Shown here: piece after piece, positions 17,340 through 64,000 of the stretch
Position numbering within the stretch: position 1 is the stretch's first letter
Layout: the number at the start of each line of letters is the position of its first letter
Notes under the pieces: model-generated
Databases searched by the model: none
What the model was told of the DNA's origin: nothing
Seen by the model: the letters and a program-made list of their open reading frames with translations, nothing else
Source: Gemmatimonadota bacterium
Lineage (GTDB): Bacteria; JAAXHH01
Direction: 5' to 3'
Assembly: GCA_026702745.1 (NCBI GenBank)
Contig: JAPPBT010000018.1
Location: 32,259 to 96,258, forward strand
Length of the DNA stretch: 64,000 bases
Translations under genes and position numbers: made by a program

Positions 17340-17597
17340 ATGTCGGTGGGTAAAAACCAGTACCAACCGGACTATGTAGTGTCACCTGGAATGGTCCTGG
17401 AAGAGAGATTGGCCGCGCAAGGACTCACACACGCTGAATTTGCTCGAAGATGCGACTGTTCACCGCAGCTCATTGAGGATATCATCGCGGGGAAGGCTCC
17501 GATTACACAGGAGACCGCTTTACAATTCGAATTGGTGTTAGGCGTAGATGCCAGTCTCTGGTTGGGAATTGAGGCTGATTACCGTTCTCGAACCTGA
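17340..17597 (+). CDS. XRE-family HTH protein (HigA-like antitoxin-type)
   Basis: ATG at 17340 after AAGGAGGGAGAG; 85 aa; HTH segment GLTHAEFARRCDCSPQLIEDIIAGK. No toxin partner gene is adjacent. Confidence 0.55.
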   Translation: MSVGKNQYQPDYVVSPGMVLEERLAAQGLTHAEFARRCDCSPQLIEDIIAGKAPITQETALQFELVLGVDASLWLGIEADYRSRT

Positions 17598-17771
17598 TAC
17601 CTTGACGCCGGTCACCTGATCTCCTATACTCCACCGGATGCTTCGACGAGTCCCTCCCTGCCCATCCTGCGGAGGACAACTGCGCCACGTCCGGGGCGCC
17701 CGGTATAGCTGCACGTCCTGCCGGGAAGATTACGGCCTGTTCCGAAAACGCGCTCCGTACACGGGTTTGCA

Positions 17772-18848
17772 TTGCGTCCGGCTTCAGTCGCTGGCCCAGG
17801 TCAGACAGGCCGAGGAGGAAGGGAACTGAACCTGCTCAAGAAGGCCTGGGGATGGCTCCGGTGGCTGATCGCACTGGGCATCCTCGCCTACCTTATCTAT
17901 CTCTACCGCGAACAATACGTCGACTTCATCCGCCGGGAAATCGATTTCACCTTCCTGGGCATCGGCGTCGTACTGGCCACGATAGCGACCGTGCTGGCCT
18001 TCTTCCGCTGGTACCTTCTCGCCCGGGGCCAGAAGCTGGTGCTGGGATTCCGCGAGGCCGTCCGTCTGGGTTTCGTCAGCAACCTGTTCAACTACCTGGC
18101 GCCCGGTACCGCGGGCGGCGACATCGTCCGCGCCGTGGGCATCGCGCGCCGCCAGAAATCAAGACGGACCGTAGCCGCGGCCACGGTGCTGCTCGACCGG
18201 CTGATCGGCATGCTGGCGCTGTTGATCGTCGGATCGGCGGCCGCGCTGCTGAACCAGGACCTCTGGCATCACCGGGAGATCATGATCGCCGTCCTCGTCT
18301 TCTGGGGCGGTGCCTTGACCGGGCTGATCTGCGTGGCGGTTTCCCTTCGTTTCCGGCTACTGGACTGGACCTTCTTCCAGCGGCTTACCCGGCTACGATT
18401 CGTCGGGCCTTTCTTCGCCGAACTGGCGGGCAGCCTGGCGCTCTACCAGACGCGACGCAGCGCGCTCACCGAGGCCCTGCTCATCGGCCTGGCCGGCCAG
18501 TTCTTCATGCTATCGGCCTTCTATTGCTGCGCGATGGCGCTCCTGCCCGGTGCGGCCGCGCCGGACTATTGGGCGCACCTCATGCTGATCCCCGCGGCCG
18601 AGATCATCGGCACCTTCGCGCCGGTGCCGGGGGGCGTCGGCGCGCTGGAAGGTGCGGTCATCTACATCTACCACCTCGTCAGCACGACCGCCGACGGATC
18701 GGTCCCGGGTACGGTCGCCCAGGCCACGGGACTGGCCGCCGCCCTGACGTACCGGATCGTTCGGGTCACCGTTGCCGCCGTGGGCGCCCTGTACTACATG
18801 GTTACGGATAGAAACTGGAAGGAAAGGCTGGGGCTGGAGGAGGCCTGA
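17772..18848 (+). CDS. Integral membrane protein, lysylphosphatidylglycerol synthase TM-region-like (UPF0104/flippase-like)
   Basis: Multiple hydrophobic helices and Gly-rich segments. The start codon is uncertain: the track start is TTG and the first in-frame ATG is far downstream. Confidence 0.55.
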   Translation: MRPASVAGPGQTGRGGRELNLLKKAWGWLRWLIALGILAYLIYLYREQYVDFIRREIDFTFLGIGVVLATIATVLAFFRWYLLARGQKLVLGFREAVRLGFVSNLFNYLAPGTAGGDIVRAVGIARRQKSRRTVAAATVLLDRLIGMLALLIVGSAAALLNQDLWHHREIMIAVLVFWGGALTGLICVAVSLRFRLLDWTFFQRLTRLRFVGPFFAELAGSLALYQTRRSALTEALLIGLAGQFFMLSAFYCCAMALLPGAAAPDYWAHLMLIPAAEIIGTFAPVPGGVGALEGAVIYIYHLVSTTADGSVPGTVAQATGLAAALTYRIVRVTVAAVGALYYMVTDRNWKERLGLEEA

Positions 18849-21899: not shown

Positions 21900-21943
21900 A
21901 CTAGCCCCCTAAATCACCTTCTTTAGAAATGTAACGTCGAAAC

Positions 21944-21961
21944 GATGTGTATATTGTGTCA
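21944..21961 (-). promoter_or_regulatory. Candidate NrdR box (ACACAATATACACA) and TTGACA -35 element between nrdR and nrdJ
   Basis: Ten consecutive positions match the NrdR-box consensus acaCwAtATaTwGtgt; the right half deviates. Confidence 0.25.
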
Positions 21962-22553: not shown

Positions 22554-22602
22554 ATCACTAGGTATAGTGGTGTTCAGACACGTAGCAAACAAGATATTGT
22601 AT
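22554..22602 (-). promoter_or_regulatory. Two candidate NrdR-box-like AT-rich imperfect palindromes (cactaggtatagtg and acaagatattgt), ~33 bp apart, upstream of nrdR
   Basis: Spacing of about three helical turns is typical of tandem NrdR boxes; sequence match to consensus is partial. Confidence 0.25.
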
Positions 22603-22679
22603 TATTTGCGAACAGGCAAGAGTCTTTTGAAACTTTTTTTGATTTGTCTAACAGAAGAATCTCATGACCCATTGCAATA

Positions 22680-22760: not shown

Positions 22761-23321
22761 CTATGGACTGAACACAATAGACAAGGTGATCGGCATCCAC
22801 TTGTGCTTCACGTCCGTCATTGCGTGATTGTATCGCGCATCGAGAGCCACGCCAATCGACGGATTTATGGGAATATGAACACCGCCACCTATCGTAAAAC
22901 TTAAAGCACTCTCGGAGTTACTGATAGATACGCCTCCTCTGGAAATTTCCGCTTTAGCACGTGTCAATCCTATTCCTCCATGCCCATATACACTTACGGT
23001 GGAAGAAGAGGAATGCAGCATAACTCCGAGGTTCGCTCCGGTAAGATTCGTTTTTCCACTCACCCCGGGGGCAAGCACGTCTTCTTCTGGCTTGTATTGG
23101 CTATAATGACCTTCCAATACCGCATGCAAGCGCTGATAAACCGGCAAGGATACTCCGCCGCGAATCGCCGGTCCATTCTTTGCTCCCTCGGCATCTATGG
23201 GAAGACTCAGTCCGCCTCCTACAATAAACGATGGCGTAGTCTCCTGGGCATGAACGGTTTTCTGAGCGGATATCGACACGAGCAAAAACGCAGCCAGCAG
23301 GTAAACTGCTACTTTTCGCAT
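22761..23321 (-). CDS. Outer-membrane beta-barrel protein (OmpA-like barrel / OmpW-like), low-GC gene
   Basis: Start at M38 after AAGGAG SD. Signal peptide MRKVAVYLLAAFLLVSISAQKTVHAQ; alternating hydrophobic beta-strand pattern; C-terminal aromatic end (...TLSIVFSP). Confidence 0.6.
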   Translation of the reverse strand: MRKVAVYLLAAFLLVSISAQKTVHAQETTPSFIVGGGLSLPIDAEGAKNGPAIRGGVSLPVYQRLHAVLEGHYSQYKPEEDVLAPGVSGKTNLTGANLGVMLHSSSSTVSVYGHGGIGLTRAKAEISRGGVSISNSESALSFTIGGGVHIPINPSIGVALDARYNHAMTDVKHKWMPITLSIVFSP

Positions 23322-23442
23322 GATACTGCTCCTTATAGGAAAAGGATACAGAAAGTACCGTTGTAACAAGGATATTTCATTAAATGATAATACACTTCGA
23401 CGTGTCAATGTTTTTCTATGGGAATATTCCATTAATTAGCAC

Positions 23443-25878
23443 CTACTCCATCCGCAACGACTCGACCGGGTTCGCGGCAGCGGCCCGCACGGCCTGGAAG
23501 CTGACGGTGAGCAGGGCGACCGCCATGGCGAGAGCGCCTGCGAGAACGAAGGTGGTCCAATCCAGGTCGACGCGGTAGGCGAAACCTTCCAGCCAGGCGT
23601 TCATCGCGAAATAGGCGACTGGCCAAGCCACCACGAGGGCCGCGATCACGAGCCGGAAGTACTCTCGAGACAACAGCGCGACGAGACCGGAGGTAGAAGC
23701 GCCGAGGACCTTGCGGACCCCGATCTCCTTCCTGCGCCTTTCCGCGGTGAAGGAGGACAGCCCGACGAGCCCGAGGCAGGCAATAATCACGGCCAGCACG
23801 GAAAAACTGATGAAGATCCTTCCGAACCGCTGTTCGGCATCATATAGGCGCGCGAAGGTGTCTTCTACGAAAAAGTACTCGAATGCCCAATCAGGATTTA
23901 CTTCATGCCATGCCTCTTCGATTGCCGATAGCCCTTCCGACATGCGACCTGCATCGATTTTGATCATGGCGTAACCGCCCGGATAGTTCGGAAACAGCAC
24001 CAGCGGTTCGATGGGTTCGCGTAAGGTGGCATAGTGGAAATCCCTGACCACGCCTACGATCGACGGCCGTAATTCACCTCGCTCATCGGAATCCGTAATC
24101 AGTTCCTGCAGCCCTTCGATCTCCTTACCCAACGCCTCGCCGGCGGATGCATAGCCAAGCCGGTCAACGGCCGCTTCGTTGACTACGACCGCTCCCGTCG
24201 CTGTCCAGTCGCCGGGGAACGCGGAATCGAAATTGCGGCCCGCCACCAGTTCGATGCCGAAAATCCCGATGAAATCATCGTCCACCCAGGCCTGGTTCAT
24301 ATCGATCATCGATGATTCGTCCTGGCCCCGTCCGCGCGCCTTGATCGGCGCCGCGGCGTTCTTGTGCCCTGGAAGCAGGAAATTCATCGAGACGTTCGTC
24401 ACCGCAGGTATCTCCTTCAGCCGTGCTTTGTAGACGCTGGATCTCACGACAACCGGCGCGAAGGTCTGAGGCACCGCGACGACCTGGTCGGAATTGAGCC
24501 CCATGTTTCGCGCGCGTATGAAATCGAGTTGGCTGTAGACCACGCCGGTGCAGATGATGAGGGCGATCGAAATCACAAACTGGCCCACGACCAGGACCCG
24601 GCGGATGGCCGCGTTTCCGGCACCTGTGGAGCGCAGGCCGCTCAGTGCCTGGACCGGTGCGAGCCCGGACAGGTAAAGGGCCGGATAGCTGCCCGAGACG
24701 AAACCCACGACGGCGCCGATCGCCACGACGGCGCCCAGGGCGAACCAGGCGGTTTCCGCATTCAGGGACAGGGATTTGCCCGTGAGCAGGTTGAACCACG
24801 GCAGACTCAACAGGGCAAGCAGGAGGGCGACGCTGACCGCCAGCCCGGTCATGAGCATGGACTCGCTGATGAACTGCCGGATCACCTGGCCCCTGGCCGC
24901 GCCGAAGGTCTTTCGCAGGCCGATCTCCCCGGCCCTTCCCGCGGAACGCGCGGTGGCCAGGTTCATGAAGTTGATGCACGCGATGAGGATGATGAACACG
25001 GCAATGCAGCCGAAAAGATAGACGTACCGGATATCGCTGTTCGGTGTCAGTTCCCGCTCGAGATGAGAGTGAAGATGGATATCCGTGACCGGCTGCAGCC
25101 TGAAGGCCAATGTCGACGATACACCATCATATTGGTCGCCGACGTACTTTTCCACGAAGGCGGGCAGCCTGGCTTCCAGTTCATCGGGATCGCTGCCCTC
25201 GCGGAGCAGGACATAGCCGTACGACTTTCGCCAGTCCCACACGTCGGCCGGTTTATCCGCGTAGTGCTCCTGGATCCGGAACGCCGCGAGGATGTCGAAT
25301 CCGAGGTGCGTGTTGGCGGGCAGGTCCCGCATGACGCCGGTCACCTCGAAATGGAAGGACCCCTCGGCATCCAGGATCTTGCCCATGGGATCTTCGTCGC
25401 CGAAGTATTTCCGGGCAATGGACTCCGACAGCACGACTTTGTCGATACCGGCCAGGGCCGTCCGCTGATCGCCGGCGATCAGCGGCACATCGAAGACTTT
25501 GAAGACCGACGAGTCGGCCAGGTAGAAGTTTCGTTCGTAGAATCCCCGGTCCCCGTACTTGATCATCCAGGCGTTTCCGGGCGGGACGAAGCGCACCATG
25601 TCTTCCACTTCGGGGAAGTCTTCGCGCATGAACTTGACCGTGGGCGTCATGACTTCGGCGGTTCGGATCACCTGGTCGCGGTCGCGCTCTTCCGAGATTA
25701 CCCGGTAGATACGGTCCGCCTTTTCATGGAACTGGTCATAGCTCAACTCGTCCCGGATATAGAGCAGGATGAGGAGGGCGCACGCGATCCCGAGCGCCAG
25801 GCTCATCACGTTGATGGCCGAGTAACCCTTCTCGCGGTTCAGATGGCGCACGGCCACCGTCAGGTAGTTGCGGAACAT
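23443..25878 (-). CDS. ADOP-family permease (MacB-like periplasmic domain + duplicated FtsX), paralog 1
   Basis: 811 aa; N-terminal TM after MFRNYLTVAVRHLNREKGYSAINV; two FtsX-type 4-TM modules; C-terminus ...NPVESLRME. Confidence 0.85.
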   Translation of the reverse strand: MFRNYLTVAVRHLNREKGYSAINVMSLALGIACALLILLYIRDELSYDQFHEKADRIYRVISEERDRDQVIRTAEVMTPTVKFMREDFPEVEDMVRFVPPGNAWMIKYGDRGFYERNFYLADSSVFKVFDVPLIAGDQRTALAGIDKVVLSESIARKYFGDEDPMGKILDAEGSFHFEVTGVMRDLPANTHLGFDILAAFRIQEHYADKPADVWDWRKSYGYVLLREGSDPDELEARLPAFVEKYVGDQYDGVSSTLAFRLQPVTDIHLHSHLERELTPNSDIRYVYLFGCIAVFIILIACINFMNLATARSAGRAGEIGLRKTFGAARGQVIRQFISESMLMTGLAVSVALLLALLSLPWFNLLTGKSLSLNAETAWFALGAVVAIGAVVGFVSGSYPALYLSGLAPVQALSGLRSTGAGNAAIRRVLVVGQFVISIALIICTGVVYSQLDFIRARNMGLNSDQVVAVPQTFAPVVVRSSVYKARLKEIPAVTNVSMNFLLPGHKNAAAPIKARGRGQDESSMIDMNQAWVDDDFIGIFGIELVAGRNFDSAFPGDWTATGAVVVNEAAVDRLGYASAGEALGKEIEGLQELITDSDERGELRPSIVGVVRDFHYATLREPIEPLVLFPNYPGGYAMIKIDAGRMSEGLSAIEEAWHEVNPDWAFEYFFVEDTFARLYDAEQRFGRIFISFSVLAVIIACLGLVGLSSFTAERRRKEIGVRKVLGASTSGLVALLSREYFRLVIAALVVAWPVAYFAMNAWLEGFAYRVDLDWTTFVLAGALAMAVALLTVSFQAVRAAAANPVESLRME

Positions 25879-25885
25879 GGCGCGT

Positions 25886-28342
25886 CTACTCGGTCCGAAG
25901 GGACTCGACGGGATTGGCGGTGGCCGCCCGCACGGCCTGGTAACTCACCGTCAGGAGGGCGAGGGCGATGGCAAGCGCGCCGGCCAGGACAAAAGTCATC
26001 CCGTCCAGGGCGACACGGTACGCGAAATCGTCGAGCCAACGATTCATCGCGAAATAGGCGGCCGGCCAGGCGATTACGTTGGCCACGATCACGAGCCGGA
26101 CGAATTCCCCCGATATCAACCCGATCACGTTCGGCGTGGACGCGCCGAGGACCTTGCGCACTCCGATTTCCTTCGTGCGCCGTTCCGCGGTGTAGGAGGA
26201 GAGGCCCACGAGACCGAGGCAGGCGATAAACACGGCCAGTACGGCGAAACTGACGAATATCCGACCGAAGCGTTGCTCGGCTTCGTAGAGGCGCGCATAG
26301 GTATCTTCGACGAAAAAGTACTCGAAGGCGAAGTCGGGGTTTGTCTCGCGCCATGCTTCCTCGATCGCCGAAAGGCCTTCCGAAAGTTGGTTGTCGTTGA
26401 TCTTGACGACCACGTGGCTGCCGTCGGACTCGGGAAAGAGTACCAGAGGTTCGATGGGTTGATGCAGCGAAGCGTAGTGGAAGTCTTTCACGACGCCTAC
26501 GATACTGCGCGGTTCCGCGGTCTCCTCATCGAAACCCTGTCGCTCGTCGAAAACCCAGTCAAACCGACCATCCAGGGCTTCTTCGGCGGAACCGTAACCC
26601 AGCCGGGAAACTGCGGCTTCGTTCAAAACCGTCCCGCCGCCCGCTCCATACCAGTCGGCGACGAATGCGCGATCGAAGAACCTGCCGGCGGCCAGTTCCA
26701 TGCCGAACGTATCGAAAAACAGGTCGTCCGTCCAGGCCTGGTTCATTTCGATCTTGGCGTTATCACCTTCGCCCAACCTGCGCACAACGGCGGTGATCAC
26801 GGCGTTCTTGTGAAAAGGCAGGATAAAGGTAGCCGTGGCATCCTCCACGTATGGAATTTCCCGCACCCGCTGTCTATATTGTCGCGCCTTCTCAATGACC
26901 GGGGTAAACGTCAGCGGCACGGCGACGAGCCGTGCCGTGTCCATACCCAGGTTCCGGTTTCGGAGGTAGTCGAGCTGGTCGTACACGACGCCTGTGCAGA
27001 TGATCAGGGCGATCGAGATTACGAACTGGCCCGCGACCAGCGTTCTGCGCATGTCCACGTTGCCGGAGTCCCCGGACAACGCGCCCTTCAAGGTATCGAT
27101 CGGAGCGAGTCCGGACAGGTAAAGCGCGGGATAGCTTCCCGATACGAGGCCGACCACGATGCCGGTCACCGCCACGGCGCCCATGATGAACCATGCGGTA
27201 TCCGCGGTCATGGATATGGATTTTCCCGATACCAGATTGAACCAGGGCAAACCGAGCACAACCAGCAGCAGCGCGACGCATACCGCCATTCCGCTCATGA
27301 TCAGGGATTCGCACAGGAACTGACGCGTCACCTGGCCCCGGCCCGCGCCGAAGACCTTTCTCAGGCCGATTTCCCGGGCCCTTCCCGCGGACCGTGCGGT
27401 TGCCAGGTTCATGAAGTTGATGCAGGCGATGAGGATGATAAACACGGCGATCGCCGAAAAAAGATACACGTACCTGATGTCGCTGTTCGGCGTCAGTTCC
27501 CGCTCGAGCCGGGAATGAAGGTGGATGTCCGTCACGGGCTGCAGCCGGTAGGTCAGCGATGACGTTTCGCCGTCGTGGATATCGCCGACATACTTCTCCA
27601 CAAAAGCAGGCAACCTGGCTTCCAGTTCGGCTGGATCGCTTCCCTCCCGGAGCAGGACGTAACTGTAAGACTTGCGCCGGCCCCAGTCGTCGAGCGACTC
27701 GTCCGCGAACGCCTCCTGAATCCTGAATGACGCGAGTATGTCGAACCCGAGGTGCGTATTGGACGGCAGGTCCGCCATGACGCCGGTCACTTCCAGATGA
27801 AAGGTCCCTTCGGCGTCCAGGATCTTCCCTATGGGGTTCTCGTCGCCGAAGTACTTGCGGGCCACTGACTGGGATAGCACGACCCGGTCGTTTCCGCTCA
27901 GTGCGGTCCGGGGATTACCTGCCAGAAGCGGCACATCGAACACGTTGAAAACAGAACTGTCGGCCAGGTAGAAATCGCGTTCGTAGAATCCCCGGTCGCC
28001 GTACTTGACCATCCAGGCGTTCACGGGAGGGTTGAAGCGCACCATGTCTTCCACCTCGGGGAAGTCTTCGCGCATGAACCTGGCCGTGGGTGTCATGACT
28101 TCGGCAGACCGCACGGACCGGATGGACCGGTCGACCCCGCCGCCCTGCCATTCCTCGGAGATCACGCGGAAGATGCGGTCCGCCTTGCCGTGATAACGGT
28201 CATAGCTCGACTCGTCCCGGATATAGAGCATGATGAGGACGCAGCACGCGATCCCGAGCGCCAGGCTCATCACGTTGATGAACGAGTAACCCTTCCTTCG
28301 ACTCAGGTGCCGGAGGGCAACCGTGACGTAGTTTCTGAACAT
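25886..28342 (-). CDS. ADOP-family permease, paralog 2
   Basis: 818 aa, collinear with paralog 1 including near-identical nucleotide stretches; 7-nt gap to paralog 1. Confidence 0.85.
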   Translation of the reverse strand: MFRNYVTVALRHLSRRKGYSFINVMSLALGIACCVLIMLYIRDESSYDRYHGKADRIFRVISEEWQGGGVDRSIRSVRSAEVMTPTARFMREDFPEVEDMVRFNPPVNAWMVKYGDRGFYERDFYLADSSVFNVFDVPLLAGNPRTALSGNDRVVLSQSVARKYFGDENPIGKILDAEGTFHLEVTGVMADLPSNTHLGFDILASFRIQEAFADESLDDWGRRKSYSYVLLREGSDPAELEARLPAFVEKYVGDIHDGETSSLTYRLQPVTDIHLHSRLERELTPNSDIRYVYLFSAIAVFIILIACINFMNLATARSAGRAREIGLRKVFGAGRGQVTRQFLCESLIMSGMAVCVALLLVVLGLPWFNLVSGKSISMTADTAWFIMGAVAVTGIVVGLVSGSYPALYLSGLAPIDTLKGALSGDSGNVDMRRTLVAGQFVISIALIICTGVVYDQLDYLRNRNLGMDTARLVAVPLTFTPVIEKARQYRQRVREIPYVEDATATFILPFHKNAVITAVVRRLGEGDNAKIEMNQAWTDDLFFDTFGMELAAGRFFDRAFVADWYGAGGGTVLNEAAVSRLGYGSAEEALDGRFDWVFDERQGFDEETAEPRSIVGVVKDFHYASLHQPIEPLVLFPESDGSHVVVKINDNQLSEGLSAIEEAWRETNPDFAFEYFFVEDTYARLYEAEQRFGRIFVSFAVLAVFIACLGLVGLSSYTAERRTKEIGVRKVLGASTPNVIGLISGEFVRLVIVANVIAWPAAYFAMNRWLDDFAYRVALDGMTFVLAGALAIALALLTVSYQAVRAATANPVESLRTE

Positions 28343-28383
28343 GGTGAAACTTTACCGCTATTAAAAGGAACGAGAGAGGCGGT

Positions 28384-30828
28384 CTACTCAGTCCGCAGGG
28401 ACTCGATCGGGTTGGCGGTGGCCGCCCGGACGGCCTGGTAACTCACCGTCAGCAGGGCGATCGCCATGGCGAGGACGCCGGCGAGGACGAAGGTCGTCCA
28501 GCCCAGGTCGACGCGGTAGGCGAAGTTTTCGAGCCAGTTGTTCATCACGAGGAAGGCGGCCGGCCAGGCGAAGACGTTGGCCACGATTACGAGCCGGACG
28601 AATTCGTTGGACAGGAGCCGGAACAGTTTCGGCGTGGAAGCGCCCAGGACCTTGCGCACACCGATTTCCTTCGTGCGCCGTTCGGCCGTAAAAGACGCGA
28701 GTCCGAAGAGACCCAGGCACGCGATGAGGACGGCGAGCACGGCAAAACTGACGAATACCTGGCCGAATCGCTGCTCGGCGTCGTAAAGGCGCGCGAAGTT
28801 GTCTTCCACGAAGAAGTACTCGAAGGCGAACTCCGGGTTGACCTCATGCCAGGTTTCCTCGATTGCGGCGAGCCCTTCAGCCATGAATTCCGGCTTGATC
28901 TTGACGACGACGTGACCGCCCTGAAAGTCGGCGAACAGGACCAGGGGGGCTATGGGCTGGTGCAAGGACGCGAAATGGAAATCCTTTACGACCCCGACGA
29001 TCCGGCGCAGTTGAACGCCTTCCTCGTTCCATCCCTGCCGCAGCTCTCTCATCCAGTTCACTTCCTTGCCCACGGCATCTTCCGGTGATTCGAATCCGAG
29101 CCTCGTTACGGCGGCCTCGTTCAGCACAGCCCCGCCGCCCGCGGTCTCCCAGCCCCAGTCGCTGACGAAGGAGGGATCGAAGTAACGGCCCGTGACCACT
29201 TCGATGCCCAGCGTCTCCAGAAAATCCTCATCCGTCCAGGCCTGGTTCATGTCGATCTTCGCAAAGTCACCGTCGCCCGGCCGCTGTAACGTAATCGGTA
29301 TCACGGCGTTCCTGTGGCCGGGAAGTATATAGGTGGAGGTCGCGTTGGTTACATAGGGACTATCCTTCACGCGCTGTTTGTAGATCCTGGCCGTCTCCTG
29401 GACCGGATCGAAAGTCAGCGGTACGGCGACGACCTGGTCCGTGTTCAGTCCCATGTTTCTCTGCTGGATGAATTCAAGCTGGTTGTACACGACCCCGGTG
29501 CATATGATCAGGGCGATCGAAATGACGAATTGGCTGACGACCAGGATCCTGCGCATTCCCGCGGTACCGGAACCCGACGCAAGCGTCCCCTTCAGGGTCT
29601 CGATGGGCGCCAGGCCGGACAGGTAGAACGCGGGATAGCTCCCCGAAACGCACCCTACCACGACACCGATGACCACCACCGCGCCAAGGGCGAACAACGT
29701 GGTGCCCGGATCCACGGCCAGCGACTTGCCGGTGAGCAGGTTGAACCAGGGCAGACTGACCACCGCCAGAAGCAGGGCGAGGCATACGGCCATTCCGCTC
29801 ATGAGCAGCGATTCGATCAGAAACTGCCGGGCCATCTGGGCGCGGACCGCGCCGAAGACCTTTCGAAGGCCGATTTCCCTGGCCCGGCCCGCGGACCGGG
29901 CGGTCGCCAGGTTCATGAAGTTGATGCAGGCGATGACGATGATGAAAACCGCGATGGCGGCAAAGAGATAGACGTATCTGACGTCGCTGTTGGGCGTCAG
30001 TTCCCGTTCCAGGCGGGAGTGCAGGTGGATATCCGTCACCGGCTGCAACCTGTACGTCAGGGATGCATCGCCGCCTTCGTAGCGATTCCCGAGGTGCTTC
30101 TCCACGAAAGCGGGCAGCTTGGCTTCCAGTTCGGCCGGGTCGCTGCCGTCCCGAAGCACGATATAGCTATGGGCCGTGCGCCAGCCCCACTCGTCGACTT
30201 TGGTGTTGGAGTAGGCTTCCTGGATCTTGAAGGACGCGAGTATATCGAATCCGAGGTGCGTGTTGGAAGGCATGTCGGGCATGATGCCCGTCACCTCGAG
30301 GTGAAAAGTGCCCTCGGCGTCCAGGATCCTGCCCATGGGGTCCTCGTCGCCGAAGTACTTTCGGGCCATGGATTCGGACAGCACGATCTTGTCGTTTCCG
30401 GTGAGCGCCGTCTTCGGATTGCCGGTCAGCAGGGGGACGTCGAACACGTTAAAAACGGTCGTATCGGCCAGATAGAAATTCCGTTCGTAGAACCCCTTGT
30501 CCCCGTACTTGACCATCCAGGCATTCCCGGGCGGGACGAGGCGGACCATGTCCTCTATTTCCGGGAAGTCTTCCCTCATGTACCAGACTGTAGGGATCAG
30601 AACGTCCGCATTTCGAACGACCTCGCCTCCCTGCCGGTATTCGGCGGTTACGCGGAATGTTCGGTCCGCGCGATCGTAGAACCGGTCATAGCTCAATTCA
30701 TCGCGGATGTAGAGCAGGATGAGCAGGCAGCAGGCGATTCCGAGCGCCAGGCTCATGACGTTGATGAATGAATAACCCTTGTGCCGGTTAAAGTGACGGA
30801 TCGCTACCGTGAAGTAGTTGCTGAACAT
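28384..30828 (-). CDS. ADOP-family permease, paralog 3
   Basis: 814 aa, same architecture; C-terminus ...NPIESLRTE. Confidence 0.85.
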   Translation of the reverse strand: MFSNYFTVAIRHFNRHKGYSFINVMSLALGIACCLLILLYIRDELSYDRFYDRADRTFRVTAEYRQGGEVVRNADVLIPTVWYMREDFPEIEDMVRLVPPGNAWMVKYGDKGFYERNFYLADTTVFNVFDVPLLTGNPKTALTGNDKIVLSESMARKYFGDEDPMGRILDAEGTFHLEVTGIMPDMPSNTHLGFDILASFKIQEAYSNTKVDEWGWRTAHSYIVLRDGSDPAELEAKLPAFVEKHLGNRYEGGDASLTYRLQPVTDIHLHSRLERELTPNSDVRYVYLFAAIAVFIIVIACINFMNLATARSAGRAREIGLRKVFGAVRAQMARQFLIESLLMSGMAVCLALLLAVVSLPWFNLLTGKSLAVDPGTTLFALGAVVVIGVVVGCVSGSYPAFYLSGLAPIETLKGTLASGSGTAGMRRILVVSQFVISIALIICTGVVYNQLEFIQQRNMGLNTDQVVAVPLTFDPVQETARIYKQRVKDSPYVTNATSTYILPGHRNAVIPITLQRPGDGDFAKIDMNQAWTDEDFLETLGIEVVTGRYFDPSFVSDWGWETAGGGAVLNEAAVTRLGFESPEDAVGKEVNWMRELRQGWNEEGVQLRRIVGVVKDFHFASLHQPIAPLVLFADFQGGHVVVKIKPEFMAEGLAAIEETWHEVNPEFAFEYFFVEDNFARLYDAEQRFGQVFVSFAVLAVLIACLGLFGLASFTAERRTKEIGVRKVLGASTPKLFRLLSNEFVRLVIVANVFAWPAAFLVMNNWLENFAYRVDLGWTTFVLAGVLAMAIALLTVSYQAVRAATANPIESLRTE

Positions 30829-31004
30829 GGGATGCCTTCAGTCAGTCTATCGGCCAGTCGTCGGGACAATCGACAGGTTACCGTTTTCTCACAATTCGGG
30901 ATGCATCAGCGCCTTATTCCCTTAACCCTGGCAGAAGTACTACTGTATAATAACACTGTGGCGCACGATCTACACCCATGTTTCCACCCTTGTGTAAGTT
31001 TACC

Positions 31005-61508: not shown

Positions 61509-61919
61509 TTATTTCTTGAGAATCTTCAAAATCCTATCCAGTGTATCCCCTGTATGGACTAACGATTCTTTGTTAGCGGATGCAATTTCACTAACAAGAT
61601 CAAGTTTCTCTTTGATCCCTTCCGAGTTGGTTTTCAGGTCCGCCACGTTGGTTTTCAGGTCCGCCACGTTGGTTTTCAGGTCCGCCACGTTGGTTTTCAG
61701 GTCCGCCACGTTGGTTTTCAGGTCCGCCACGTTGGTTTTCAGGTCCGCCACGTTGGTTTTCAGGTCCGCCACGTTGGTTTCGATTCCAACCAATCGGTTG
61801 TCGATTTTGAGGATGTGATTCAATATCGAACTCGAAGTATCTTCAAGACTGGATACCCTGCGTTCCAACCTGCTCATTCGACGTTTCATATCGGGAGTAT
61901 CATCTATTACAGTCATCAT
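61509..61919 (-). CDS. Coiled-coil repeat protein with 7-8 perfect TNVADLK heptads (XhlA-like, phage-associated?), low-GC
   Basis: 136-aa ORF; N-terminal coiled coil (MSRLERRVSSLEDT...), then identical heptads encoded by a perfect 21-bp tandem array. Confidence 0.5.
   Translation of the reverse strand: MMTVIDDTPDMKRRMSRLERRVSSLEDTSSSILNHILKIDNRLVGIETNVADLKTNVADLKTNVADLKTNVADLKTNVADLKTNVADLKTNVADLKTNSEGIKEKLDLVSEIASANKESLVHTGDTLDRILKILKK
61626..61793. repeat. Perfect 21-bp tandem repeat x8 (gttggttttcaggtccgccac), coding (in-frame heptad TNVADLK)
   Basis: Eight identical units plus a partial ninth. Confidence 0.9.
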
Positions 61920-62249
61920 CTGGTTCCTAACCTATCCGGGGTGGTTGTTTCGAGGGATTCGTCACAGAACGAGAGCGACCCGTAAGTCGTCGTTTCAACT
62001 GTTGTATCCATCAAGCCACCTGGTATGGGTGACTACATGAATCAAGTCACATCGTTGGCAAATTGTCAACGCCGATTTTGTTGGCATCTCGTCAACACTC
62101 GTGTATCCATGCCTTATCACCTCCTATGCCATCAGATCGAAGTTTCCAGGCCGTTTTTTATCCCAATGTTCACCGTTCGATATTTCCCCCTTTCTTTTCA
62201 TAACCGGACTCGCAGGTCCATGTTACTGATCCTGGGATATCCGCAATTT

Positions 62250-62510
62250 TCACTCTACCCGTCCCAGGTGCGTATTCATGTCGTGTTTCTCTTCCCGCAT
62301 CGAGGATAACTCGGTACGTATAGCAGCCATCCCGGTACGCATTTCCGAGAAGCCTGAACGGACTTCATCCCTGAATTCCTGGTTCAGCTGATTGACAAAC
62401 GCAAAAACGGTAATGACCAGGACCCCTGCGGCGGTTATGATCTGGGCGCCGAAGGCCCAATGATCACGGGATATCATGGTCATGTCTGACTCCTTCCAAA
62501 GTTCATCCAA
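62250..62510 (-). CDS. Small membrane protein with TM helix followed by coiled coil (hypothetical)
   Basis: 86-aa ORF; TM segment AFGAQIITAAGVLVITVFAFV; lies in the low-GC islet. Confidence 0.35.
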   Translation of the reverse strand: MDELWKESDMTMISRDHWAFGAQIITAAGVLVITVFAFVNQLNQEFRDEVRSGFSEMRTGMAAIRTELSSMREEKHDMNTHLGRVE

Positions 62511-62620
62511 ATAAGCCTACCGCCGCTGATCTCACGCTGATATCTTAAGAGTCGCAAATCGAGTTTCCAATCTCGTAGATAAAACACAGATCAGAACCAT
62601 CATGTGAAAAGGACTACGAA

Positions 62621-63559
62621 ATGATCGTCATGGCTACGAACAACGGCGACGTGGGCATCCGGCAGGCGGTGGCCGCGCTCAGGGAAGGCAAGACCGCGGT
62701 GGACGCCATCGAGATCGGCATCCGGGAGGTGGAGGTGCACCGTCCCGACCGCAGCGTCGGCCTGCACGGCTATCCGAATATCCTCGGCTATCCCCAGCTG
62801 GACGCCCTCATCATGGACGGCCGCACGCGCGACGTGGGGGCCGTGGGCGCGGTGACGGGCTACGATCATCCGATCTCCATCGCACGCTGCGTCATGGAGA
62901 AGCTGATCCACGTCTTTCTCGTCGCCGACGGCGCGGAGCGGTTCGCCAGCGAAATGGGTTTCGAGAAGAGCTCCTTCGTGGACCCCGAGATGCCCGAGAT
63001 CTACGCGAAGCACGTGGTCGAACAACTCGGCATCGACGACCCCGAGGAACTCCAGCACACCAAAGAACTGTGGAAGCTGAGCCACCTGGCCGTCGATCCG
63101 CAGAAGGCCGGGGGCACGACCAACTTCATCGCGCAGGACGGCAACGGCGACATCTGCGTGGGCGTGAGCACGAGCGGCTGGGGATGGAAGTACCCGGGCC
63201 GCCTGGGTGATTCGCCGGTCATCAGCGCGGGCGGATTCGCGGACAACCGCTACGGCGCCGCGGCCTGCACGGGCACGGGAGAGCTGGCCATCCGGACCGG
63301 CGCGGCCCGGAACGTGGTGACCTACATGAAGATGGGCATGTCGCTGGAAGAGGCGACGGCCGAGGGGCTTCGGGACATGAACGAACTGGACTCCCAGCGC
63401 GTGGGCGGCGTGCAGATCATCTCTCTGGACTCCAGCGGCGCCCACATGGCGGGGACCACGAGCGACCGGAAGGGCAGCCACGTCTACATGACGGCCGACA
63501 TGGACGAGCCCGAGTTCGTCGAAGGCATTTCCGTGCCGTACGAAGGCGCGAGCCAGTAG
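62621..63559 (+). CDS. Isoaspartyl peptidase/L-asparaginase (Ntn-hydrolase, glycosylasparaginase family)
   Basis: Family blocks GAVGAVTGYDHP..., autoproteolysis-site-like GGTTNF, and TGTGE. Confidence 0.8.
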   Translation: MIVMATNNGDVGIRQAVAALREGKTAVDAIEIGIREVEVHRPDRSVGLHGYPNILGYPQLDALIMDGRTRDVGAVGAVTGYDHPISIARCVMEKLIHVFLVADGAERFASEMGFEKSSFVDPEMPEIYAKHVVEQLGIDDPEELQHTKELWKLSHLAVDPQKAGGTTNFIAQDGNGDICVGVSTSGWGWKYPGRLGDSPVISAGGFADNRYGAAACTGTGELAIRTGAARNVVTYMKMGMSLEEATAEGLRDMNELDSQRVGGVQIISLDSSGAHMAGTTSDRKGSHVYMTADMDEPEFVEGISVPYEGASQ

Positions 63560-63631
63560 AACTCAAGCCAACAAAAGGAGTCGGGCGCGGCCGTTCGGAG
63601 CATCGTAGATGAACCCGGAGGAGCATCCCGG

Positions 63632-64000
63632 ATGAAGCTGGAGGACGCCAAGGCCCATCTCGACGAACACGGTTATGTCGTGCTCAGAGAGGCGTTGACC
63701 CCGGATCAGGCCAATGCCCTGCGCGATCGCTCGGCCGAGTTGGCCGCAGCGGAAAGGGACGATGGCGAGCACGTCTACTTCGACGGGCAGGCGCAGCGGG
63801 TGTGGAACCTGGTCAACAAGGGCCGCATCTACGAGGAGATGATCCAGCTGCCCCAGGTACTTGCGCTCCACGAACACCTGCTCGGCGACGATTGTATCTT
63901 AAGCAGTTTTACCGTCAATCTCATCGGCCCCGGCGCACCGGCCGGCGGTCTGCACGTCGACTTCCCGCTTGGCCGATTCCCGCAGCCCGCGCCTCCGTTC
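63632..64000 (+). CDS. Phytanoyl-CoA dioxygenase family protein, 5' partial (runs off window end)
   Basis: ATG at 63632 after GGAGGAG SD; 123 codons open to base 64000 (absent from the ORF track because it has no stop); ...NLIGPGAPAGGLHVD is PhyH-like. Confidence 0.65.
   Translation, partial: MKLEDAKAHLDEHGYVVLREALTPDQANALRDRSAELAAAERDDGEHVYFDGQAQRVWNLVNKGRIYEEMIQLPQVLALHEHLLGDDCILSSFTVNLIGPGAPAGGLHVDFPLGRFPQPAPPF

Follow-up and report, generated by a model that had tools for sequence, protein, structure and literature searches.

Tandem ADOP-like fused MacB-type permeases in a Gemmatimonadota bacterium: ancient, maintained paralogs with no ATPase gene in cis

MacB, LolCDE and YbbAP, which belong to the type VII class of ATP-binding cassette (ABC) transporters, work by mechanotransmission (PMC12646458). 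Permeases fused into one chain and served by separate ATPases have precedents in YbbA2-YbbP (PMC12646458) and DarBCD (PMC8442675). The genes described here have relatives in Bacteroidota whose clade is labeled “acidobacterial duplicated orphan permease” (ADOP) by RAST (PMC11573002, PMC3914696). Dyadobacter carries 28-33 copies (PMC11573002), and Psychroflexus torquis has a highly expressed 42-kb cluster with ten paralogs (PMC3914696). The “orphan” label has been in use since 2009, going by the year of the Ward et al. paper as it is cited in PMC3914696; the mentions of ADOP-like arrays that we found in the literature were made in passing, and none was a mechanistic study. We analyzed three tandem genes of this kind, designated P3, P2 and P1, in a 64,000-nucleotide stretch of DNA from a Gemmatimonadota bacterium (GenBank assembly GCA_026702745.1, contig JAPPBT010000018.1, positions 32,259 to 96,258), referred to as the window. 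The three are anciently duplicated, individually maintained paralogs of a fused MacB-type permease with eight transmembrane (TM) helices. They are probably type VII ABC permeases powered by a MacB/DarD-type ATPase encoded elsewhere in the genome.

All three genes are minus-strand open reading frames (ORFs) arranged head to tail and transcribed in the order P3, P2, P1. An earlier note, made from the sequence alone, had described three tandem paralogs with MacB-type periplasmic domains and two FtsX domains each. The ORFs lie exactly where that note had placed them, at 28384..30828 (P3, 814 aa), 25886..28342 (P2, 818 aa) and 23443..25878 (P1, 811 aa), with gaps of 41 bp (P3/P2) and 7 bp (P2/P1), and the proposed architecture agrees with Pfam, hydropathy and an AlphaFold2 model. 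Pfam matches to MacB_PCD and two matches to FtsX were obtained for each protein, and the double MacB_PCD plus FtsX arrangement of P3 (MacB_PCD twice, FtsX twice) is shared by P2 and P1. The model was computed for P2 using a 30-sequence alignment (A1) and has a mean predicted local distance difference test score of 81.8 and a predicted TM-score of 0.74. Hydropathy and the model agree on TM helices at residues ∼17-45, 289-319, 335-372, 380-410, 426-462, 678-721, 736-770 and 781-808 and on two periplasmic domains of ∼250 aa each. Domain 1 (residues 40-291; 27470..28225, minus strand; Pfam MacB_PCD 20-245) matches the P. gingivalis permease domain 3is6 with a TM-score of 0.79, and domain 2 (residues 454-694; 26261..26983, minus strand) is the most divergent domain when identities between the paralogs are compared. 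Short cytoplasmic helices were modeled at residues 322-330, 414-418, 723-731 and 811-817. Each of P1-P3 is predicted to join two MacB-like halves directly, as a 4+4 TM fusion, with a periplasmic domain and an FtsX domain occurring twice. A fold search with the P2 model gave YbbP, MacB, Spr0694-0695, LolCDE and BceAB as the top matches, all of them ATPase-driven type VII systems, and also HrtBA. Pfam, the model and the fold matches all show in the trio the FtsX-type bundle of 4 TM helices, with its large periplasmic domain inserted between TM1 and TM2.

The best-scoring named family for all three proteins was TIGR03434, the ADOP profile, which aligned end to end (profile positions 5-803 of 803). 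To this extent the ADOP assignment of the earlier note stands, but membership in the family as curated does not: the scores are 323.0 (P1), 332.4 (P2) and 325.7 bits (P3), and the curated cutoff is 622.3 bits. The architecture is that of ADOP proteins (duplicated FtsX and MacB-like periplasmic domains in one polypeptide of ∼800 aa). ADOP as originally defined is an acidobacterial lineage; the closest relatives of the trio are labeled Gemmatimonadota or Gemmatimonadetes, and the next closest come from phyla of the Fibrobacterota-Chlorobiota-Bacteroidota (FCB) group. By “orphan” the definition means that no ABC ATPase gene is fused or adjacent, which is true of the trio locus and its lineage and not of the wider clade. 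Relatives from Bacteroidota, Ignavibacteria, metagenome-assembled genomes (MAGs) labeled Acidobacteriota, and Gemmatimonadota scored 281-307 bits on TIGR03434, and permeases of relatives that are linked to an ATPase gene had the same scores. Since these linked permeases are sub-threshold in the same way as the trio, they are placed in the same clade. The trio belongs to a sister clade of ADOP proper, spread over Gemmatimonadota and the FCB group, with scores of 281-332 bits for all of its members.

The closest homologs are proteins from Gemmatimonadota MAGs, with P2 orthologs at 83-92% identity and members of the other two paralog clades at ∼70%. At 36-48% identity there follow proteins from Ignavibacteria, KSB1, Calditrichia, Rhodothermales, Aminicenantes, Zixibacteria and, above all, Bacteroidota (including Spirosoma, Mucilaginibacter, Dyadobacter and Chitinophagaceae). 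A total of 21,877 clusters at 50% identity reach E≤1e-30; the trio clade forms one such cluster, and its nearest neighbor is 48% identical. Many relatives at 40-45% identity (P0132, P0138, P0151, P0171, P0172, P0222 and others) are 860-900 aa long and have 70-97 additional N-terminal residues ahead of P2 residue 1, an extension that the trio lacks. It may be a PadR-associated HAAS-type domain, as N-terminal domains of this type have been reported fused to FtsX/MacB_PCD proteins (PMC11237479).

We weighed whether the genes might simply be ordinary orthologs of MacB, LolC/E, YbbP, BceB or DarB that have been mis-split from their partners. The fold class is common to both, and DarB (NF038008) is the second-best NCBIfam match, with full-length coverage. 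Every score, however, lies far under the curated cutoff: 124-136 bits against 700 for DarB, 21.7-34.7 bits against 966 for MacB (PRK10535 / NF007826, FtsX region only), and 18.8 bits, for P1 only, against 362 for LolC/LolE (TIGR02212, a single FtsX domain of ∼410 aa), so the view that these are not ordinary MacB or LolE proteins is upheld. No Walker A and no LSGGQ motif was found in the trio genes by motif scan, and the fused nucleotide-binding domain (NBD) of MacB is absent. YbbP and BceB have 10 TM helices (PMC12646458) as compared with 8 in the trio; YbbP also has a TM5-6 linker and an adjacent ybbA gene, matches P2 at the level of fold only (13-14% identity in the structural alignment), and is absent among the matches of a PDB sequence search. 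This lineage furthermore has at least three paralogs at each locus, and its genomes have at least three such loci. Mis-split ordinary orthologs are thus very unlikely.

The C-termini read ...NPVESLRME in P1, ...NPVESLRTE in P2 and ...NPIESLRTE in P3. In P2 the motif (ANPVESLRTE; 25889..25918, minus strand) is placed by the model and the alignment in the short helix 811-817 that follows TM8. The presence of this motif had been noted correctly, apart from the variant in P3, but it had also been taken as a mark of the ADOP family. MacB of A. actinomycetemcomitans ends in ...ELNPITALA and S. pneumoniae Spr0695 in ...KLDPIEALR, both in the same register; the motif is therefore generic to MacB-type, FtsX-domain permeases and not diagnostic of ADOP.

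The window is the reverse complement of positions 52573-116572 in a 124,760-bp metagenome scaffold (ENA ERZ23496730, scaffold_111), and the search for an ATPase included ∼15 kb beyond its ends (8 kb and 6.7 kb), for a total of ∼79 kb. The claim that no ABC ATPase gene adjoins the trio was borne out by motif, hidden Markov model (HMM) and Pfam searches over this range, and none is fused to the permeases. A motif scan found no LSGGQ signature anywhere in the 64 kb, and the only canonical Walker A of the region is that of rarA/mgsA, which lies upstream of the trio and is divergent from it. A custom HMM built from 22 ATPases adjoining relatives gave no NBD match in the window, and Pfam found no ABC_tran domain among called genes in the ±10-kb locus or on the scaffold in the stretches of 8 kb and 6.7 kb outside the window. 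Queries with the relatives' sequences (tblastn) returned no adaptor, TolC, histidine kinase, sigma54-dependent response regulator, PadR or DUF4097 homolog in the window. In this lineage the unlinked state is the rule. The same genomes have at least two further family loci, a second trio at ∼40% identity (L022) and an 803-aa singleton (L082/L083), which are without ATPase, adaptor and TolC genes, and the closest outgroup (P0074, 47% identity, locus L088) is an unlinked singleton as well. A cognate ATP-binding subunit is found neither in the ∼79 kb of scaffold nor at the related Gemmatimonadota loci; one adjoins relatives in 18 of 80 loci.

These 80 genome loci, each extending ±10 kb around a relative, are the best matches to P2 and should not be considered a random sample. 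ATPases were detected in them from our own ORF calls and motifs, and then with an HMM built from those same matches. In these loci the permease genes are arranged in tandem on one strand, in arrays that reach at least 9 copies and in many cases extend past the locus on both sides; 357 permease ORFs and ∼25 ATPase genes were counted in 1.41 Mb. Out of 27 ORFs with ABC NBD matches, 23 are found at most 1 kb from a permease gene, a zone of 168 kb, and 4 in the other 476 kb of flanking sequence, a ∼16-fold enrichment beside permease genes. One of the 4 distal matches opens a pair of tandem ATPase genes placed at the edge of an array. An ATPase gene was present at 12 of 50 visible upstream edges and 5 of 40 visible downstream edges (17/90 in total). 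Clustering of flanking ORFs gave as recurrent partners an HlyD-type adaptor (15 loci), a TolC-like outer-membrane efflux protein (OEP; 8 loci), a divergent histidine kinase (HK) with a sigma54-dependent response regulator (RR; 10-11 loci), a Toastrack/DUF4097 protein (6 loci) and PadR (5 loci). The typical layout, confirmed by Pfam, is a divergent HK and sigma54-RR pair followed by an HlyD adaptor, one or two ATPases, several permeases, in some cases another ATPase, and a TolC-like gene. Layouts with 3 to at least 8 fused permeases, often with a TolC-like gene, were seen at L007, L020, L023, L047, L061, L062, L070, L075 and L079. Apart from passing remarks in genome papers, no description of such an arrangement of many permeases per motor was found in the literature.

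ATPases of the arrays resemble MacB, LolD, FtsE and YbbA, and their best match is DarD (NF038007; 270-305 bits, cutoff 375). Those identified by motif and HMM at array edges (L007:6196-7569, L020:8407-9876, L052:1104-2517, L076:3-1852, L070:9247-9921 and 17348-18007) fall into two conserved types: type 1, of 225-231 aa, has the Walker A sequence GPSGCGKS, and type 2, of 220 aa, has GPSGSGKS/T. Within each type, identity is 75-92% over the range from Ignavibacteria to Bacteroidota, and type 1 is only 53-57% identical to type 2. Walker A, LSGGQ, Walker B and the H-loop are intact in both, and the two genes are either in tandem on the upstream side of an array or placed at its opposite ends (L070). 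Two types suggest a heterodimeric motor matched to an asymmetric fused permease. Because ATPase, adaptor and TolC-like genes share operons with the relatives, the family appears to work there as part of a tripartite pump of the MacAB-TolC kind, in which one motor has many alternative permeases, and is not INTRINSICALLY orphan. The “orphan” description of the earlier note thus fits the trio locus and fails as a property of the family, in which ATPase, HlyD adaptor and TolC-like genes flank the relatives' arrays.

The predicted interface with the motor lies in two cytoplasmic loops. From the model and the alignment, coupling helix 1 of P2 (residues 322-330, AREIGLRKV; 27353..27379, minus strand; equivalents in P1 and P3) is in the TM2-TM3 loop and coupling helix 2 (residues 723-731, TKEIGVRKV; 26150..26176, minus strand) is in the TM6-TM7 loop. 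Nowhere is the protein more conserved than in these loops, with helix 1 in the top 30-aa bin (0.89). In 30 sequences at 43-73% identity, no variation is seen at E324, G326, R328, K329 and G332 (first half) or at E725, I726, G727, R729, K730 and G733 (second half), so that both halves carry an invariant E-x-G-x-R-K-x-x-G, and the region aligns to MacB ERTKEIGVRMAIGA. The equivalent helices of YbbP each bind one YbbA subunit (PMC12646458). In both coupling loops and at the C-terminus, 76 linked and 190 unlinked full-length permeases could not be told apart by consensus or by per-column conservation, and P1-P3 carry the same coupling and C-terminal motifs as linked relatives. From this conserved interface, and from the purifying selection described below, we infer that an ATPase docks on the coupling helices; the indirect evidence for docking in the trio is strong.

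In the proposed mechanism, one chain would mimic a MacB or LolCE dimer, running from TM1 through periplasmic domain 1, TM2, the coupling helix, TM3 and TM4 and then repeating this order. Two ATP-binding subunits of the MacB/DarD type, encoded elsewhere in the genome, would dock on the two coupling helices, and their ATP-driven closure would be passed by mechanotransmission along the long TM1/TM2 and TM5/TM6 stalk helices to the periplasmic domains. Movement of these domains would expel or extract a substrate from the periplasm or the outer leaflet, and the substrate would probably leave by way of an adaptor and TolC-like duct of the kind seen in the relatives. The three paralogs would supply different periplasmic heads to the same motor. 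The use of an ATPase encoded in trans, the direction of export and the class of substrate are inferred.

Several observations weigh against energization in trans, and in part they also speak for its main rival. According to the latter, the trio proteins are true orphans that use no ABC ATPase and serve as periplasmic binding or sensing modules or as envelope scaffolds, or that draw on some other energy source. No candidate for an ATPase, adaptor or TolC of this organism is present within the 64-kb window or the ∼79 kb of scaffold, none adjoins the syntenic arrays of five related genomes, and the same is true of the two other paralog loci of the lineage and of the closest outgroup; the Gemmatimonadota loci covered (the window, L002-L004, L089, L022, L082/L083) are all without an ATPase gene. 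The best support comes from arrays and singletons with both edges visible, only 6 of 32 having an ATPase and 26 of 32 having none, so that unlinked copies are the majority. Note that linked and unlinked were assigned per locus and that many arrays run off the locus, due to which the unlinked count is an upper bound. The excess of ∼357 permease ORFs over ∼25 ATPase genes in the 80 loci points the same way; on the trans reading, unlinked copies would use a shared motor. The cytoplasmic helices might, in principle, be conserved for the sake of a different partner in the cytoplasm. The definition of the ADOP family rests on this same observation of missing ATPases, and BceB-type relatives, which are among the PDB matches, illustrate that type VII permeases can act in sensing.

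Three points count against true orphans. Both coupling helices and the C-terminal helix are equally conserved in unlinked and linked copies, with invariant residues in both halves, and a motor-free state should have relaxed this constraint. Every structurally characterized relative needs an ATPase (PMC12646458). ATPase genes are, as given above, ∼16-fold enriched beside family members. We therefore regard true orphans as unlikely, and energization by an ATPase encoded elsewhere as the probable state. If unlinked copies did function without any ATPase, they may represent the first nucleotide-independent type VII machine.

The bracketing of relatives by ATPase, adaptor and TolC-like genes, the two ATPase types and the equal conservation of the coupling helices together suggest that many permeases share few motors. 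It is possible, and we propose it tentatively, that the family as a whole is a library of interchangeable heads, in which diverged permeases, satellite arrays included, time-share a small pool of ATPases, possibly the type-1/type-2 heterodimer, and perhaps a single adaptor and TolC duct. In that case the permease that is expressed would set the substrate range. Shared motors would be an unusual organization of ABC transport and would explain why the family has been labeled “orphan”.

Selection on the genes was estimated from orthologs in related genomes. P3 is 84-86% identical (aa) in L002 and L004 with omega (dN/dS) of 0.11-0.13, P2 orthologs are 84-93% identical with omega of 0.18-0.19, and the P1 ortholog in L004 is 90% identical with omega of 0.13. 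Purifying selection (omega 0.11-0.19) acts on all three genes and extends over both periplasmic domains, the TM segments and the cytoplasmic parts. Within the trio, identity is 73-95% in the TM and cytoplasmic parts, 70-79% in periplasmic domain 1 and 55-61% in domain 2, for which the mean identity of the family to P2 is 28%. Between paralogs domain 2 has dN values of 0.28-0.36, and between orthologs its omega is 0.09-0.25. As the paralogs differ mainly in this domain, they probably have different substrate or partner specificities for the same motor, and the divergence fits diversification of specificity on a constant chassis for motor coupling.

These estimates also bear on whether the genes could be decaying, nonfunctional remnants of a once complete pump operon. 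The partner genes of the FCB relatives are missing from the window, the copy number of the slot varies from 1 to 3 between genomes, and the P1 ortholog of L004 is frameshifted, all of which would fit decay. Yet none of the three ORFs is disrupted, omega stays at 0.11-0.19 in every domain with orthologs at synonymous divergences (dS) of 0.16-0.71, the ortholog clades hold full-length proteins from many genomes, and the frameshift may be a sequencing error in a long-read-style MAG. Decay is highly improbable on this evidence.

A further claim concerned the age of the genes. The earlier note had seen long identical nucleotide runs in P1 and P2 and read them as recent duplication or gene conversion, which would make the trio a recently duplicated or converted triplet whose tandem copies evolve in concert. 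The longest exact common runs are 37 nt (P1/P2), 31 nt (P2/P3) and 23 nt (P1/P3), and the first two speak in favor. The 37-nt run encodes INVMSLALGIAC of TM1 (25780..25816, minus strand; partner copy 28244-28280), and by a permutation test it is not a conversion tract. It sits in TM1, among the most conserved segments of genes with a GC content at third codon positions of ∼0.8, and the runs in general lie in such conserved TM segments. Overall, the paralogs are 68-71% identical in amino acids and 73-75% in nucleotides, their identity at four-fold degenerate sites is 0.45-0.55, and dS by the NG86 method is 0.9-1.0, a range near 1 in which this method is unreliable. In a Sawyer-type test, in which 890 variable alignment columns were permuted, the longest runs of pairwise concordance were 5-6 sites, equal to the chance expectation for all pairs (p = 0.45-0.60), and a repeat search found only three-copy families that are 61-81% identical.

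The history was also traced with a neighbor-joining tree of ∼70 close homologs, a distance tree without support values, in which P1, P2 and P3 each fall in a separate clade with orthologs from many assemblies and same-genome paralogs never cluster. The duplications are therefore older than the divergence of these genomes, and there has been no concerted evolution. Recent duplication and gene conversion are rejected, the latter by three tests (the permutation, the repeat search and the tree), and each paralog groups with the orthologs of other genomes instead of with its neighbors. One feature leaves room for very old, eroded exchange, in that dS between paralogs is 0.65-0.84 in the TM and cytoplasmic parts as compared with 1.35-1.64 in periplasmic domain 2; the difference may come from poor estimates of dS between such divergent sequences, or else from very old exchange. 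A recently converted triplet is, with all this, extremely improbable.

The slot that holds the trio (22761-30828 in the window) has a conserved neighborhood of rarA, permeases, in some genomes a gene for an outer-membrane protein (OMP), nrdR, nrdJ and LPG-synthase, with flanking proteins 88-100% identical between genomes. Its content is P3-, P2- and P1-type genes plus the OMP gene in L004 (7516-14958), a P2-type then a P3-type gene without the OMP gene in L002 (10001-15019), a single copy from another clade plus the OMP gene in L003 (10001-12433), and a P3-type gene, a copy from a basal clade and a P1-type gene without the OMP gene in L089 (7513-14977). With 1, 2 or 3 permeases of varied clades and orders, this rarA-nrdR slot looks like a hotspot of recombination and turnover. 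Compared with L004, dS is 0.26-0.46 for the flanks, 0.16 for P2, 0.41 for P1 and 0.71 for P3, an up to 4-fold difference between adjacent genes of the array, which suggests that the slot has undergone recombination or replacement of alleles. In L004 (MAG CBDBLQ010000002.1, 12446-13036) the frameshift of the P1 ortholog is near codon 178, and it may be a pseudogene or a homopolymer error of long reads, the MAG being of long-read style.

Downstream of the trio follow an OMP_b-brl ORF, nrdR and a class II ribonucleotide reductase gene. The first of these, a 223-aa ORF (22761-23432) that directly follows P1 and is the size of an NBD, was considered as an ATPase and ruled out, since it encodes a signal-peptide-bearing OMP_b-brl protein. 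From its MRKVAV... start the gene (22761..23321, minus strand; Pfam OMP_b-brl, 51.7 bits) encodes a small outer-membrane beta-barrel of 186 aa, lies downstream of P1 at a distance of ∼120 bp, and may or may not be part of the trio unit. It follows the array in L003 and L004, is absent from L002 and L089, and is not a recurrent neighbor across the family; its GC content is 0.50 and that of the trio 0.61. Its identity to orthologs is 65-67% (aa) as compared with 88-100% for the flanking proteins, with omega of ∼0.3, and it appears to be a fast-evolving surface protein.

In the divergent rarA/P3 intergenic region (30829..30977), alignment of five syntenic genomes gave a conserved block consisting of GTTATTATACAG (∼30943-30954) and, ∼35 nt on, GATGCATCC (∼30899-30907), the rest of the region being poorly conserved. 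A promoter-like site lies on the plus strand at 30922-30951, although the generic promoter and terminator scan was uninformative overall. The block could be a promoter for either gene, an operator or a leader element. A sigma54 promoter was expected upstream of P3 because relatives have sigma54 regulators, but the intergenic region contains no sigma54-type -24/-12 match, and matches across the window were below chance. No Rfam family reached its gathering threshold in the window. AT-rich palindromes at ∼21935-21960 and ∼22600-22625 (minus strand), for example ACACAATATACACAT upstream of nrdJ, presumably resemble NrdR boxes.

Near its far end (61689-64000) the window differs from scaffold_111 by 3 nt and is otherwise 100% identical to it. 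An Asparaginase_2 gene at 62621-63559 (plus strand) is a 312-aa ORF in the window; the public record has an in-frame stop (KSSF versus *STY) and calls proteins of 115 and 189 aa. A 136-aa ORF at 61509-61919 (minus strand) contains eight perfect tandem TNVADLK heptads, encoded by a 21-nt DNA repeat, with coiled-coil-like flanks.

The trio genes are ordinary, ancient and selectively maintained members of a very large, known and uncharacterized family. They should be annotated as fused MacB-type (ADOP-like) ABC permeases and not as a case of gene conversion. The family reaches dozens of copies per genome in Bacteroidota, and neither its function nor its energy source has been defined by experiment; the energization of so many fused permeases in one genome is a question at the level of the family, sharpened by the comparative data and not specific to the window. 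Compared with ADOP proteins proper (TIGR03434), the trio is alike in its ∼800-aa duplicated MacB_PCD plus FtsX architecture, in forming multi-copy paralog families and in the usual lack of an adjacent ATPase gene. It differs in that the trio and its clade score below the cutoff, in that it comes from Gemmatimonadota and not Acidobacteria, and in that its clade is often linked in operons to ATPase, adaptor and TolC genes. Within the clade, the trio lacks the 70-95 extra N-terminal residues of many distant relatives.

Among systems with a separate ATPase, the darobactin exporter DarBCD (DarB permease, DarC adaptor, DarD ATPase) is similar to the relatives, which combine a fused permease with an adaptor and a separate ATPase (PMC8442675), whereas the window of the trio has no gene cluster for a RiPP (a peptide made on the ribosome and modified after translation), no adaptor and no ATPase, and the relatives have many permeases per ATPase instead of one. 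E. coli YbbAP-TesA (PDB 9GE6/7/8) is the best full-length structural match to P2 (9ge6, E=1.5e-18, TM-score 0.51). Like the trio proteins, YbbP is a single pseudosymmetric chain with two FtsX halves and two Porter/Sabre domains, and its two coupling helices serve two ATPases (PMC12646458). Unlike them, it has two more TM helices, the TM5-6 linker and ybbA next to it; the trio has no evident TesA-like partner.

MacAB-TolC shares with the trio the FtsX-domain fold, the periplasmic core domain, the coupling sequence (ERTKEIGVRMAIGA versus ERRTKEIGVRKVLGA) and the C-terminal motif, and the relatives' operons contain the corresponding HlyD-type adaptor and OEP/TolC gene. MacB itself is a homodimer of a 4-TM permease with its own N-terminal NBD, whereas the halves of the trio proteins are fused and the NBD would be separate and unlinked. 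LolCDE and BceAB(S) have the same type VII fold. LolCDE contains a heterodimer of two FtsX permeases that the fused protein mimics, and BceB is, like P1-P3, a single-chain double-FtsX permease, although one with 10 TM helices and a single large extracellular domain. In contrast to the trio, both have dedicated adjacent ATPases, and the LolCE profile score of 19 bits is far from its cutoff of 362.

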